From assembly GCA_020724905.1 (NCBI GenBank), contig DYGB01000001.1, positions 65,866 to 129,865 of the forward strand: a stretch of DNA of 64,000 nt. Reading direction: 5' to 3'. This DNA is from Candidatus Paceibacter sp. Its GTDB lineage: Bacteria > Patescibacteriota > Minisyncoccia > UBA6257 > JAGOQP01. Position numbers and translations under genes: made by a program. Under the pieces are notes generated by a model. The model saw only the letters and a list, made by a program, of their open reading frames with translations, made no database searches and was not told the origin of the DNA. Positions 17,991 to 21,748 of this stretch are shown here, piece by piece; the stretch's first letter is position 1, and each line of letters begins with the position of its first letter.

Positions 17991-19274
17991 ATGATTACCC
18001 GTATAAAACAACTTGTCGCATTACTGGGAGATCTCGCTCTTCTCTATGGAGCGCTATTTCTTACGCTTTTAATTCGCTATCAATCAATACAACATGTTGA
18101 TGCACACCTCATCCCTTTTTCGTGCATCTTTATCGTATGGATTATTCTCCTCTACGCATTTGGATTCTATGAGATAAAAAATCTTAAAAATACGATAGAG
18201 TTTGGCGTTCTGTTCTTACTAGCTATTGGAATAGGAATGATTAGCGCTATTGTGCTCTTCTACCTTATCCCTTCCTTTCATATCTCACCAAAAACAAATC
18301 TTGTCATCTTCTCTGGAGTCTTTATGGTGCTAGGGCTTTTGTGGAGATTTATATTTAATACAGCAACACGAGGATACACCCAAACAGTTCTAGTGATAGG
18401 GAATAGTTCTCACGGGCAAGAGATCCTCTCTTATATCACACACAACCCTCATATTGGGTATGTTCCCTTTCATATTACAGATCCTTCAGTAGAAAGAATT
18501 CAGGAGGCACTCCGAAACCATCCTGAGTATGTCGTCTATGACCCTCAACTCTTTGAACATGAGGGTCCTTTTTCTACACTCTCACAGCTCCTGGTAACAT
18601 CTCAGAGCACGTCATATCATACTCATGAATTCTATGAATTATTGTTAAAGAAAGTTCCTCTGACCAAAACATCCTACACCCCACCACAACGATCCTTCTA
18701 CCTTTCAATTCGTCCTCTTATAGAAAAGATTATTGCACTCATTCTTTGTATTATCCTTCTCCCTCTTCTACTTCTCATCTACCTCCTTGTTGTTCTTACC
18801 TCAAAAGGAGGAGGTATCTACTTACAAGAACGTATCGGAAAACATGAGAAACCATTTCTCATATACAAATTTAGAACCATGGTACATGATGCAGAAAAAC
18901 AAGGCCCTCAGTTTGCTACCCATCAAGATCCTCGTATCACCCTCATTGGACGCTTTCTTCGCTTTACCCACCTTGATGAACTCCCTCAGTTGATAAATGT
19001 GATAAAGGGAGATGTCTCATTTGTAGGGCCACGACCAGAACGTCCTCCCTTTGTATCAGAGCTTAAAAAACAAATTCCTCTCTACAGCATCAGACATACC
19101 ATACACCCAGGTATTACCGGATGGGCACAGGTACAGTATCGGTATGGGTCAAACAAAGAAGATGCAGAAGAAAAACTACGCTTTGACCTCTACTATGTAA
19201 AACATCAATCATTCTTTCTTGATCTTATTATTCTCACAAAGACAATAAAGATGGTATTTTTTAATTATAAATAG
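17991..19274 (+). CDS. Polyprenyl-phosphate glycosyl-1-phosphate transferase (bacterial sugar transferase, WbaP/WecA-like initiating enzyme)
   Basis: 4-5 N-terminal TM helices plus the C-terminal Bac_transf domain (KFRTMVHDAE...LDELPQLINVIKGDVSFVGPRPERP...GITGWAQV). Confidence 0.85.
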   Translation: MITRIKQLVALLGDLALLYGALFLTLLIRYQSIQHVDAHLIPFSCIFIVWIILLYAFGFYEIKNLKNTIEFGVLFLLAIGIGMISAIVLFYLIPSFHISPKTNLVIFSGVFMVLGLLWRFIFNTATRGYTQTVLVIGNSSHGQEILSYITHNPHIGYVPFHITDPSVERIQEALRNHPEYVVYDPQLFEHEGPFSTLSQLLVTSQSTSYHTHEFYELLLKKVPLTKTSYTPPQRSFYLSIRPLIEKIIALILCIILLPLLLLIYLLVVLTSKGGGIYLQERIGKHEKPFLIYKFRTMVHDAEKQGPQFATHQDPRITLIGRFLRFTHLDELPQLINVIKGDVSFVGPRPERPPFVSELKKQIPLYSIRHTIHPGITGWAQVQYRYGSNKEDAEEKLRFDLYYVKHQSFFLDLIILTKTIKMVFFNYK

Positions 19275-19346
19275 GTTAACTTAGGTAGTATGATTAACAT
19301 ACGTTAACCATTGACGTCTGGTTAACATAGATATATACTACATATA
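19275..19346 (+). promoter_or_regulatory. Sigma70-like promoter (TTGACG-N17-TATACT) embedded in GTTAAC palindromic repeats; putative operator of the HTH-Doc operon
   Basis: -35 at 19311-19316 and -10 at 19334-19339. GTTAAC occurs at 19275, 19303 and 19321, with a TTAAC half-site at 19294. The ATG at 19347 lies about 8 nt after the -10, so the transcript is leaderless or has a very short leader. Confidence 0.5.
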
Positions 19347-19619
19347 ATGGAAAATAACAAAGAGAAGGAATTCCTTTCAACAATAGAAGTAGCTCAATTA
19401 CTTGGCATCAGCAGAATTGCTGTTTTTAAGCGTATCAAAAAAGGAACCCTCCCTGCTCAAAAAATAGGAGAACAATATGTTATTGCAAAAAAAGATCTTA
19501 ACTTAGAAAAACTCCACAGCCCCCTCTCTCAGAAAAGAAAAGATGAATTAAAAAAAAGTATTTCACATATCTTAGAACGATATGAAGAGGCATTTAAACT
19601 TCTTGGGAAAACAGAGTAA
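19347..19619 (+). CDS. Excisionase/MerR-type helix-turn-helix DNA-binding protein; putative antitoxin of the Doc module
   Basis: STIEVAQLLGISRIAVFKRIKKGTLPAQKIG is an excisionase-family HTH. Its stop overlaps the doc start (TAATG). Confidence 0.7.
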   Translation: MENNKEKEFLSTIEVAQLLGISRIAVFKRIKKGTLPAQKIGEQYVIAKKDLNLEKLHSPLSQKRKDELKKSISHILERYEEAFKLLGKTE

Positions 19620-20044
19620 TGAAAAAAGTAGTATACCTCACAATCAAAGAGATTGAATTTTCTGCCTATGAACTTGCAGTACAACTCCTCACAGGGAGCG
19701 AACCGATACCACCGTTCTCAACTCGATATCCTGAAGTTCTCGAGCGATGCGTATATAGCCCACAACAAACATTTGATAAGAAGGATATGTATCCAACGCT
19801 GTATAAAAAAGCGTCAATTCTTTTTTATACACTTATCAAGAATCATCCTTTCAAAAACGGTAATAAACGAATAGCTCTTACATCACTCATTCTTTTTCTA
19901 GAAAAAAATGGATATACTATTACCATAGATTCAGTGCGCATTTACCGCTTCACTCTCTGGATAGCAGAAAGTGATGCAAGTTTAAAAAGTTCAGTACTAG
20001 AGATAATAGAAGAATTTATTAAAAAATACTCAACAAAACTATGA
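19619..20044 (+). CDS. doc: Doc (death-on-curing) toxin, Fic/Doc family kinase
   Basis: Fic/Doc motif HPFKNGNKRIAL (HxFx[D/N]GNKR) at the expected position. At 141 aa it is the typical Doc size. Confidence 0.8.
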   Translation: MKKVVYLTIKEIEFSAYELAVQLLTGSEPIPPFSTRYPEVLERCVYSPQQTFDKKDMYPTLYKKASILFYTLIKNHPFKNGNKRIALTSLILFLEKNGYTITIDSVRIYRFTLWIAESDASLKSSVLEIIEEFIKKYSTKL

Positions 20045-20961
20045 TTGAAATATATAAAAAAACACTACGAGATACAGAACTCAAAAAAAGAGAGTCATTT
20101 GATAAGGGGTCATGGGTGTTAGTGACAAATCCAGATGATGAAGAAATACAAGTACTCACCGAGGAGTTAGGCCTTGAGAGGGGACATATTCTTGATGCTC
20201 TGGATATTCATGAGTCTCCTCGTTTTGAAGCAGAAAAACATGGTCTTTACATCTTCCTTCGTTTCCCCTACACAGAAGCAGGGATGATTCATACCATGCC
20301 AGCTCTTTTTGTTATCACCGATGATATGCTTATTACTATTGTAAAAGATCAACGACTCCTCTTTGAAGACTTCCTCACAGAAAAGGCGCTTTTCTATACC
20401 ACCCAACGACAAAAAACAGCACTCTTTATGTTTCTTAAAATTAGTCTCCTATACAGACGTCATCTACAAAAGATAAATAAAGAACTTCGTTCAAAGAGAA
20501 ACAAGCTTGAAGAAATTAACGATAACGATATTAAACGATTCGTCCAATGGGAAGAAATATTAAATGACTTTATTACCTCAGTAGTACCTGCAAGTAATAT
20601 CTATCGAACTATTTTGAGTGGAAAATATATTACTTTCTTTAAAGAAGATGAGGATATCATTGAGGACTTGCTTCTCAGTAACGATGAGACCATCGATATC
20701 TGTAAAACAAATATCAAAACTATTGTAAACATTCGAGAAGCCTACTCTACCGTTGTTGCAAATAATCTTAACCGTACGGTAAAGTTCTTAACTGCAATAA
20801 CGATTATTCTGACCCTTCCAACGATGATCGCAAGTATCTATGGTATGAATATAGAATTACCTTTCCAAGGGCATCCCCTTGCCTTTCCTATGGTAATAGG
20901 AATTATCTTTCTTGTTGCTATCATTGCCCTTCTTTTGTTTCAAAAGAAAAAATGGCTCTAA
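20041..20961 (+). CDS. corA: CorA-family Mg2+/Co2+ transporter
   Basis: Two C-terminal TM helices flank the signature loop YGMNIELP (GMN motif). At 306 aa it is the typical CorA size. The start overlaps the doc stop (ATGA). Confidence 0.8.
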   Translation: MIEIYKKTLRDTELKKRESFDKGSWVLVTNPDDEEIQVLTEELGLERGHILDALDIHESPRFEAEKHGLYIFLRFPYTEAGMIHTMPALFVITDDMLITIVKDQRLLFEDFLTEKALFYTTQRQKTALFMFLKISLLYRRHLQKINKELRSKRNKLEEINDNDIKRFVQWEEILNDFITSVVPASNIYRTILSGKYITFFKEDEDIIEDLLLSNDETIDICKTNIKTIVNIREAYSTVVANNLNRTVKFLTAITIILTLPTMIASIYGMNIELPFQGHPLAFPMVIGIIFLVAIIALLLFQKKKWL

Positions 20962-20993
20962 AAAAAGACGACTATATACATAATAGTCGTCTG
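20961..20993 (-). terminator. Rho-independent terminator for the minus-strand gene 21029..21748 (also sits directly after the corA stop)
   Basis: AGACGACTAT-ATACATA-ATAGTCGTCT is a perfect 10-bp stem preceded by AAAAAA on the plus strand, which reads as a T-run on the minus strand. Confidence 0.55.
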
Positions 20994-21028
20994 TAGTAAA
21001 ACCAACCGAGGGCCAAGAGCAAAGGGAC

Positions 21029-21748
21029 CTAGTGCCGACCGCGGCACGAGGGAGACCCCCACCCGTCCCCGCCATCCTCGAAGTCGCTCCAGTAGAGCCC
21101 GGGCAACTCATCGCCATGCAGGCAGACATGGGGAACGCCACCCAGATAGCGGGATCCGGTACAGTCGAGATAGTGATCACTCAACACATTGGTATGAAGA
21201 GCAAGAGCAATACATTCCTCTACAACAAGGGGGAGACGATTATCTTTCTGCATTGCTTCTTCTGCTTTTCGAGGTGAATACCCACGGTATACCGTACCGT
21301 CTTCGACATCAAAAATGGCATATGGTTCTGAAGGAGTAGATACAATGTTGTTAATATCACCAACATCAAAATATGCACACCCCTTATTACCTTTGTACAC
21401 CAATGTTTTCATCTGGGCATCAAAACCCCATTGTTGTTTAGGAACAACAATAAGAAAAGGAATGTGATGATCAGGAATATCCATACCAATAGCTGTTCTG
21501 ATCGTTTCGTCTTTCTTTTTTACAATCTGATCAAGTACAGATTGTGGGCAATCAATATGTGAAAGCGTCTCAACCTGTTTGTCCCAGAGCGAAACATACA
21601 ATGCCTCTCGTTCACCCTTTCGTGTTTGTGCTTCTTTCTTTGCTTTTCGAAATACATCAGATACATCAGCAAGAGTACACTGTGTATGAAGATAAATACG
21701 TACAAGTACCTTCTTTAGCTCATCAACATATGTTTTAGGTAATGCCAT
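21029..21748 (-). CDS. Hypothetical protein (239 aa), unknown function, with a GC-rich 3-prime coding tail
   Basis: Long ORF with SD-like context. I recognise no domain. The last ~50 codons lie in a ~60% GC patch, unlike the rest of the window. Confidence 0.45.
   Translation of the reverse strand: MALPKTYVDELKKVLVRIYLHTQCTLADVSDVFRKAKKEAQTRKGEREALYVSLWDKQVETLSHIDCPQSVLDQIVKKKDETIRTAIGMDIPDHHIPFLIVVPKQQWGFDAQMKTLVYKGNKGCAYFDVGDINNIVSTPSEPYAIFDVEDGTVYRGYSPRKAEEAMQKDNRLPLVVEECIALALHTNVLSDHYLDCTGSRYLGGVPHVCLHGDELPGLYWSDFEDGGDGWGSPSCRGRH

Follow-up and report, generated by a model that had tools for sequence, protein, structure and literature searches.

A probable type II toxin–antitoxin operon with a Doc-type toxin and a MerR/excisionase-like antitoxin adjoins a resident corA gene in a Candidatus Paceibacter genome

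The stretch analysed here (the window) comprises 64,000 nucleotides of contig DYGB01000001.1 from a Candidatus Paceibacter sp. assembly, and is dense in cell-envelope glycosyltransferase, flippase and redox genes, as is typical of a small-genome Patescibacteria-like organism. Between positions 19347 and 20961 it carries three co-oriented open reading frames (ORFs) that encode a small helix–turn–helix (HTH) protein, a Doc-type toxin and the Mg2+/Co2+ channel CorA. An original prediction made from the letters alone regarded these genes as a translationally coupled tricistron in which a toxin–antitoxin (TA) pair with a non-canonical antitoxin might be functionally joined to a cation transporter. 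Judging by profile searches, structure models and a survey of homologous loci, we consider it quite probable that positions 19275–20044 form a self-contained type II TA operon, and that corA is a resident neighbour rather than a functional part of it. The main features of the locus are as follows.

19275–19326, plus strand: putative operator array of four sites (GTTAAC 19275–19280, aTTAAC 19293–19298, GTTAAC 19303–19308 and GTTAAC 19321–19326)
19311–19339, plus strand: sigma-70-like promoter (−35 TTGACG 19311–19316, 17-nt spacer, −10 TATACT 19334–19339)
19347–19619, plus strand: HTH gene (antitoxin/repressor), 90 amino acids
19371–19502, plus strand: MerR/excisionase-type winged HTH, residues 9–52, the N-terminal domain of the 90-residue protein
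19530–19601, plus strand: conserved C-terminal helix of the HTH protein, residues 62–85, consensus DKxxIxxAVKKTVxEYGExLKLLGKE
19619–20044, plus strand: doc (toxin gene), 141 amino acids
19844–19870, plus strand: Doc-type catalytic motif HPFKNGNKR, residues 76–84
20041–20961, plus strand: corA (Mg2+/Co2+ channel gene), 306 amino acids

The three genes are tightly packed. At the HTH/doc junction (GTAATGA), the TAA stop codon of the HTH gene (19617–19619) and the doc ATG (19619–19621) have one base in common. At the doc/corA junction (CTATGATT), the corA ATG (20041–20043) overlaps the doc TGA (20042–20044) to give the four-base overlap ATGA. Both stop/start overlaps (TAATG and ATGA) had been predicted and are read at the junctions. 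Upstream, a gene for a polyprenyl-phosphate sugar transferase ends at 19274 and the first GTTAAC begins at 19275, within the 72-bp intergenic stretch that separates this gene from the HTH gene.

By all sequence and structure criteria that could be applied, the 141-residue protein is a member of the Doc family. It matches the Pfam Fic family (PF02661, 1.9e-11, 45.1 bits against a cut-off of 24) and the profile TIGR01550 DOC_P1 (3.2e-15, 56.4 bits against a cut-off of 38.65). Doc proteins carry the motif HxFx(D/N)(A/G)NKR, whereas AMPylating Fic proteins carry HxFx(D/E)GNGRxxR. Residues H76, P77, F78, N80, G81, N82, K83 and R84 are unchanged across 29 Doc homologues. An AlphaFold2 model of the protein (predicted local distance difference test (pLDDT) score 92.6) has as its top Foldseek matches the P1 Doc structures 3k33, 3dd7 and 3kh2 (probability 1.0, TM score 0.58–0.67), and sequence matches in the PDB are 9vzc and 3k33. 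Identity to P1 Doc is approximately 20%.

The upstream protein matches Pfam HTH_17 (4e-8, above the curated cut-off) and TIGR01764 ‘excise’ (5e-8, 33.1 bits against a cut-off of 28.8), and searches with the Pfam and TIGR profiles gave no match to Phd/YefM. Thus, the predicted identities of the two ORFs, a Doc-type Fic protein with HPFKNGNKR and an excisionase/MerR-type HTH rather than a Phd/YefM antitoxin, hold up in the profile searches that the prediction had proposed, with both ORFs above curated cut-offs. The AlphaFold2 model of the HTH protein (pLDDT 81.5) consists of an E-H-H-E-E winged HTH at residues 9–47 followed by a long helix at residues 62–85. For the HTH part, the best Foldseek matches are Xis of mycobacteriophage Pukovnik, NmlR (MerR), RacA, BldC and the RdfS excisionase.

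HTH proteins of this family are 82–106 residues long and exhibit two separately conserved blocks, namely the HTH (residues 9–50) and a C-terminal segment (residues 62–89). The C-terminal helix presumably neutralises Doc. A division of labour of this kind, with one part binding DNA and the other neutralising the toxin, would be the usual one for type II antitoxins. A Shine–Dalgarno sequence for doc was rejected as a general explanation of the C-terminal conservation; a tetramer resembling this signal is present in 28 of 76 pairs.

Excisionases and Xis-like proteins are the best profile and structure matches to the HTH domain, which would also suit a reading in which the two genes are not a TA pair at all. 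The HTH protein would then be a true excisionase (recombination directionality factor) or a general transcription factor of a mobile element, and the Fic protein, in keeping with the general activity of Fic proteins as AMP transferases, would AMPylate its targets in a regulatory rather than toxic capacity. However, the catalytic motif is the Doc kinase variant (NKR) rather than the GNGRxxR of AMPylators, the longer Fic architecture is absent and the best structural matches are to P1 Doc. No integrase or recombinase gene lies within ±10 kb of the pair, no att-like repeats or other mobile-element genes were found near it, and the conserved partner of the HTH protein is Doc. The tight, overlapping arrangement of two small genes, together with the second conserved block at the C terminus of the HTH protein, is a TA signature. 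We regard a function outside TA biology as extremely unlikely.

The pairing of the two genes extends far beyond this genome. Doc homologues with 45–58% identity are plentiful in metagenomes, mainly in Patescibacteria but also in many other phyla. A survey of the family that used one genome per species yielded at least 555 loci, the best 80 of which were examined. An HTH homologue is located immediately upstream of doc in 75 of these 80 loci, and for two of the other five there is hardly any sequence, or none, upstream. The original prediction would have been undone had HTH and Doc homologues never co-occurred, and they are instead regular partners. Its description of the antitoxin as non-canonical is correct relative to P1 Phd-Doc and fails within this Doc subfamily, where Doc is regularly partnered by an HTH protein. 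Measured from the HTH stop codon to the doc start codon, the two genes lie −23 to +7 nt apart, and overlaps of 1 nt (32 loci) and 4 nt (17 loci) are the most frequent. Phyla that carry the pair include Patescibacteria, Planctomycetota, Omnitrophota, Nitrospirota, Methylomirabilota and Acidobacteriota/Aminicenantes, among others. Together with the GTTAAC enrichment described below, this conservation strongly supports the assignment of HTH-Doc as a conserved, autoregulated type II TA operon, and in public annotation many of these toxins are already named ‘type II TA death-on-curing family toxin’. Plasmid and phage collections, which represent cultured organisms, contain only distant Doc homologues (at most 37% identity), and the adjacent antitoxin, where named, is of the AbrB/MazE type or an unspecified addiction-module protein. 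Thus, the HTH-Doc subfamily is not represented in these collections.

Upstream of the HTH gene, the putative operator has the layout GTTAAC-N12-aTTAAC-N4-GTTAAC-N12-GTTAAC, with start-to-start distances of 18, 10 and 18 bp. The hexamer GTTAAC occurs nine times in the window, which is below the mean of 13.4 in shuffled sequence, and three of the nine copies sit in this array; three copies inside 52 bp are far from a chance occurrence. The sequence TTGACG-N17-TATACT, which matches a sigma-70-like promoter at 10 of 12 positions, is the top promoter-like site in 18800–21400. Its TTGACG lies within the second N12 of the array and its 17-nt spacer holds the fourth operator site, so that the predicted interleaving of three GTTAAC copies and a TTAAC half-site with the promoter is read in the sequence. 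The −10 element ends 7 nt before the ATG of the HTH gene and thus the transcript is probably leaderless or nearly so. The same geometry of −35, −10 and ATG is found in the patescibacterial homologues L005 and L033, where TTGACA lies between operator sites and the −10 element ends 6–8 nt before the ATG, which makes a predicted transcription start at or near the ATG plausible.

To place this array in its family context, the 120 nt upstream of the HTH gene were surveyed in the 73 species-genome loci with enough upstream sequence. These regions contain 146 copies of GTTAAC (16.7 per kb), compared with 0.14 per kb in the other 475 kb of the same loci, which corresponds to an enrichment of roughly 118-fold. 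At least two copies are present in 45 of the 73 loci, and every other palindromic hexamer recurs there in five loci at most. Successive copies are spaced by 10 bp (29 times) or by 18–19 bp (46 times), matching the 18-10-18 arrangement in the window. Across the family, the operator core is often the perfect palindrome GGTTAAC-ATAT-GTTAACC, and the −35 element often lies between operator sites, as it does here. The GTTAAC array is therefore very probably the operator of an autoregulated promoter, as the original prediction had proposed from the layout, given that homologous pairs from many phyla have this hexamer, at these spacings, in front of them. The new knowledge here is only this phylum-spanning conservation of the GTTAAC operator architecture.

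One subgroup of loci (L008, L009, L012, L018–L021, L029, L056 and L071) carries GTAAC-N4-GTTAC, an inverted repeat that is one base shorter (for example, TGTAACATATGTTACA). This variant gives a hint of what the half-site really is, and of a change in specificity among family members. The presence of essentially one GTTAAC operator across many phyla would allow cross-regulation between paralogues and the exchange of cassettes through the operator and 5′ region. In a separate observation, two HTH-Doc loci, L036 and L049, are found in one metagenome-assembled genome (MAG; DQCG01, Phycisphaerales UBA9295); paralogues with the same operator type can thus coexist in one genome. No second HTH-Doc copy with which the operator could be shared is present in the window.

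If the assignment as a type II TA operon is correct, the winged HTH of the antitoxin would bind the GTTAAC array, which brackets the −35 element and fills the promoter spacer, and would thereby repress its own promoter. The C-terminal helix would bind and neutralise Doc, and the TAATG overlap would couple translation of the HTH gene and doc. By homology to P1 Doc, the toxin would act as a Doc-type Fic kinase that phosphorylates EF-Tu, leading to translation arrest once the labile antitoxin is lost. The module would have landed directly upstream of a pre-existing corA in the ancestor of a narrow Patescibacteria-like clade, after which corA would probably be transcribed with the TA genes and perhaps, in addition, through transcripts running on from the sugar-transferase gene.

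The same parts and the same regulation could instead serve mainly in anti-phage abortive infection or another form of defence, with phage infection as the trigger, rather than in addiction or stabilisation. The match of Doc to the PADLOC models PDC-S23 (‘phage defence candidate’; 2e-21 to 2e-13) is stronger than that to Pfam Fic; the module is patchy, often lost and apparently swapped between close relatives; and hsdR or an integrase gene adjoins it in some genomes. Many type II TA systems act as abortive-infection systems. However, PDC-S23 is itself only a candidate, and the likeness covers only the C-terminal ~110 residues of models that are ~312–331 positions long and is thus limited to the Doc domain, a match suggesting that related Doc domains are also fused within single-gene candidate defence proteins. 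In addition, there is no evident phage-sensing component, and no defence genes flank the pair in the window, where its neighbours are cell-envelope and redox housekeeping genes. A primary role in defence is a possibility that we take seriously but consider unlikely.

The third gene belongs to the CorA family (PF01544, 4.3e-38, 131.7 bits). Its product carries the YGMNIE sequence at residues 267–272, including GMN at residues 268–270 (nt 20842–20850), and two hydrophobic C-terminal segments. The TIGR00383 score of 100.8 bits lies below the equivalog cut-off of 200.75, and thus the CorA assignment holds at the family level only. A relationship to the PADLOC ‘CorA-like’ CRISPR-associated effector was considered and rejected, because this match is weak (1.4e-4) and confined to the C terminus. 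The gene is under strong purifying selection, with a ratio of nonsynonymous to synonymous substitution rates (dN/dS) of 0.03–0.04 between the window and its relatives L003 and L004.

According to the original prediction, corA could either belong to the system or simply ride on the operon. A genuine three-component system, in which corA is functionally coupled to the TA pair and the release of toxin or the turnover of antitoxin is regulated together with Mg2+ uptake, would be consistent with the junction. Specifically, the window, L003 and L004 have the same ATGA overlap and gene order although their nucleotide sequences diverge by approximately 14%, neither a terminator-like site nor a good promoter-like site was found between doc and corA, and the 3′ end of doc is fused to corA in both of the TA-deletion derivatives described below. 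However, in none of the best 80 homologous loci is a CorA homologue found downstream of or near Doc, so the neighbourhood comparison that the prediction had suggested yields no conserved downstream corA. Exact-protein look-ups recover the tricistron only in very close relatives, L003 and L004. The TA family abuts many unrelated genes equally tightly: an ORF of at least 80 residues that starts from about −30 to +10 nt relative to the doc stop codon is present in 11 loci, and in eight of these it is an unrelated gene identified by Pfam. These genes are hsdR (L022, with a near-identical ORF in L028), purM, a phage-type integrase gene, a CCA-adding enzyme gene, an O-antigen ligase gene, ksgA and the gene of an FtsX-type permease.

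The overlap itself follows from corA. This gene starts with ATGAT (Met-Ile) in the window and in the five relatives whose corA start was read (L004, L088, L089, L091 and L093), with or without a TA pair, which indicates that the overlapping TGA stop codon of doc is supplied by corA’s own start. Moreover, orthologous corA genes occupy the orthologous locus without HTH and Doc (L088 and L089) or without Doc (L093), and corA orthologues with ~60% identity reside in a different gene order with no TA genes. The three-component reading is thus already largely refuted by the neighbourhood data, and we judge it very improbable. The prediction of corA as part of the system fails in these comparisons, whereas its alternative, that corA merely rides on the operon, fits them: corA is, as far as these comparisons indicate, a bystander, a resident Mg2+ channel gene rather than a TA component.

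The relatives of this locus document how the module has been lost. L003 has a Doc protein with 84% and a CorA protein with 97% identity, and its contig starts ~35 nt upstream of doc and thus does not cover the HTH gene. L004 carries the complete arrangement (Doc 64%, HTH protein 45%, CorA 97% and sugar transferase 91% identical) with the window promoter kept. Both L004 and L093 have four perfect GTTAAC copies at positions that match the operator sites in the window. L088 and further corA-bearing loci were obtained by a search that started from CorA.

In L093 (NCBI MAG GCA_015657915.1; HTH protein 72% and CorA 97% identical), the four GTTAAC copies and an intact HTH gene are followed by an internal doc deletion that removed window positions 19648–20007 together with the doc start codon, and homology resumes at window position 20007. 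In L088 (CorA 93% identical), the sugar-transferase gene is followed by 73 bp and then by corA, with neither an HTH nor a Doc ORF. These 73 bp hold three operator sites in the arrangement GGTTAAC-N12-GGTTAAC-N5-TTAACC and the last ~40 nt of doc, which encode ..KKYSTKL and end in a TGA that overlaps the corA ATG; the segment equivalent to window 20019–20087 is retained at 94% identity. The 73 bp are a deletion scar that corresponds to the loss of roughly window 19309–20010. L089 (CorA 80% identical) has a 100-bp spacer before corA with no recognisable TA remnant; as a candidate for a second deletion scar, this spacer has only chance-level 9-mer matches.

These loci form a decay series from an intact TA pair (window and L004), through deletion of doc (L093) and persistence of the operator and the doc 3′ end (L088), to no trace (L089), with corA retained in every member. 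They are most simply explained if the TA module became placed in front of corA, already resident there, within a single small clade from which it is now disappearing bit by bit. Two remnants are of interest in their own right. In L088 (L088:3928–4000), operator sites persist upstream of corA without the repressor gene, and an HTH-Doc paralogue, if there is one in this genome, could still bind the leftover sites because the operator sequence is common to the whole family. In L093 (L093:4270–4340), the antitoxin gene and the four-site operator persist as an orphan antitoxin with a dN/dS of 0.32. The corA gene of L093 (L093:4339–5222) has an apparent 37-nt deletion and a frameshift near codons 60–72, and could be either a real pseudogene or an assembly error.

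One part of doc outlasts the deletions.

20005–20040, plus strand: last ~36 nt of doc (..EEFIKKYSTKL), kept before corA in both TA-deletion derivatives

This segment is retained in L088 and L093 and diverges slowly in L004, which points to a corA initiation region, and the last ~36–40 nt of doc probably carry translation-initiation or proximal expression signals for corA. Transcription of corA is likewise tied to its surroundings. Since there is no terminator, good promoter or Rfam element between doc and corA, corA is probably co-transcribed with the TA genes, and because no terminator follows the sugar-transferase gene, read-through from that gene into corA is also possible. An M-box or other riboswitch upstream of corA was rejected, as the whole 64 kb contain no match to any Rfam family, tRNAs included, above the gathering threshold.

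Several observations weigh against a self-contained TA operon with an independent corA neighbour. The antitoxin has neither a solved structure nor a sequence relative in the PDB, and the predicted DNA binding, toxicity, neutralisation and EF-Tu target are drawn from homology to P1 Doc, to which the toxin is only ~20% identical. Exact GTTAAC is absent from the 120 nt upstream of the HTH gene in 22 of the 73 loci, and many of these 22 have the GTAAC-N4-GTTAC variant instead, so the recognition sequence is not strictly invariant. With regard to corA, the ATGA overlap, the lack of a terminator or strong internal promoter after doc and the persistence of the tricistron in three diverged genomes leave room for corA expression in this lineage to depend on the TA promoter. 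In the strongest form of such dependence, corA would have no promoter of its own and would be subordinate to the TA promoter, repressed by HTH-Doc and derepressed upon antitoxin degradation. We consider this very improbable. The L088 corA is intact though the −35 element, the fourth operator site and the −10 element are gone, which argues against a dependence of corA on the TA promoter. If such subordination were true, however, placement of corA under the TA promoter would have linked ion uptake to toxin activation by accident, in a connection that has since become functional.

The TA genes of L004 differ from those in the window in a manner that the flanking sequences do not share. The flanking genes have synonymous divergence (dS) values of 0.34–0.58, and the HTH and Doc coding regions (L004:2007–2715 compared with window 19347–20044) are saturated, with proportions of synonymous differences (pS) of 0.74–0.78 and nt 19442–19699 unalignable. 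The last 16 codons of doc have a pS of 0.19, compared with more than 0.65 in the remaining doc, and the operator is also close. Saturated TA coding regions between close flanks, operator and doc 3′ end suggest that the TA cassette of L004 was replaced by a divergent allele, rather than that its proteins merely evolved fast. The L004 allele in turn suggests that cassettes may be exchanged by way of the conserved operator and 5′ sequences.

Base composition gives no sign of recent arrival. The TA pair has a GC content of 0.34 and corA of 0.357, compared with a window mean of 0.384 (standard deviation 0.034), and ~13% of equal-size windows have a GC content as low as or lower than that of the TA pair. 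The low value is thus not significant and provides no compositional evidence of recent acquisition. The lower GC content, which the original prediction had taken as consistent with acquisition, was rejected as such a sign, given that the GC content of corA is just as low.

On the other side of corA lies a further element.

20966–20992, minus strand: hairpin with a 10-bp, G+C-containing stem just 3′ of the corA stop codon, with a T-run on the minus strand only

The T-run overlaps the region of the corA stop codon, and on the plus strand the structure is a hairpin without a U-tract. It looks like the terminator-like site of a convergent DUF5701 gene rather than of the TA-corA transcript. This DUF5701 gene (Pfam, 2.9e-12; 21029–21748, minus strand) is located between corA and a gene for a 176-residue protein, and its 3′ end (especially 21029–21200) has 61% GC in a genome of 38% GC. 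It looks foreign. The same slot lacks this gene in L003, L004, L088 and L089, and in L093 holds a gene for a 324-residue HTH/phosphoribosyltransferase-like protein; such variation between relatives indicates that the slot 3′ of corA is a variable insertion hotspot.

Among characterised systems, P1 Phd-Doc is the closest in plan. In both, the Fic fold and motif of the toxin are of the Doc variant (HxFx[D/N][A/G]NKR), the toxin gene follows and overlaps the gene for a small DNA-binding antitoxin, and palindromic operator sites overlap the promoter. Phosphorylation of EF-Tu, neutralisation by a C-terminal antitoxin helix and autorepression are presumably common to both as well. In contrast to P1 Phd-Doc, the antitoxin here is a MerR/excisionase-like winged HTH protein (HTH_17) rather than Phd/YefM, the toxins are only ~20% identical, and the operator consists of four GTTAAC-type hexamers spaced by 18-10-18 bp. 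The system is also chromosomal, belongs to an uncultivated small-genome bacterium and has corA downstream.

The combination of parts has a precedent in the ‘mix-and-match’ pairs of a MerR-like HTH protein with a PIN toxin, in which a truncated MerR-superfamily HTH also acts as antitoxin and repressor and which show that toxins and the DNA-binding folds of antitoxins recombine freely (PMC2701414). In that compilation (Makarova et al. 2009, PMC2701414), the partners of Fic/Doc are AbrB, Xre, Phd and YhfG, truncated MerR-like HTH proteins occur only with PIN, and the HTH_17-Doc combination is not among the listed pairs. In the literature searched, no description was found of an HTH_17/excisionase/MerR-Doc pair or of a GTTAAC TA operator, which is no proof of absence. 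The small MerR-like DNA binders Xis, BldC and RacA have the fold predicted here for residues 9–52, and proteins of this type bind arrays of short repeats cooperatively, which fits the four-site operator. Unlike the protein described here, they serve as excision factors, developmental regulators or chromosome anchors without a toxin partner; the HTH protein of the window carries an additional conserved helix at its C terminus and is not encoded near an integrase gene.

TA operons in which a further gene lies downstream include mazE-mazF-mazG of Escherichia coli and the tripartite toxin–antitoxin–chaperone (TAC) systems with HigB, HigA and a SecB-like chaperone. As in these operons, the toxin gene in the window has behind it a third gene in the same orientation, which is probably part of the same transcript. 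In mazEFG and TAC, however, the third gene is conserved with the TA pair and modulates it, whereas corA is not conserved with the TA genes (0 of 80 loci) and survives their deletion.

For corA, the value of this analysis is a negative result, in that a toxin–antitoxin pair fused to a cation transporter is a local juxtaposition and not a new system. The locus also provides, in small-genome bacteria, a clear natural record of how a TA module decays and how its alleles are replaced. The survey defines a large, uncharacterised Doc subfamily, with pattern matches in hundreds of species genomes mostly from uncultivated phyla, that has a MerR/excisionase-like HTH antitoxin. Its conserved GTTAAC operator, with spacings of 10 and 18–19 bp, provides a ready, testable DNA target for a family of TA repressors without a solved structure.

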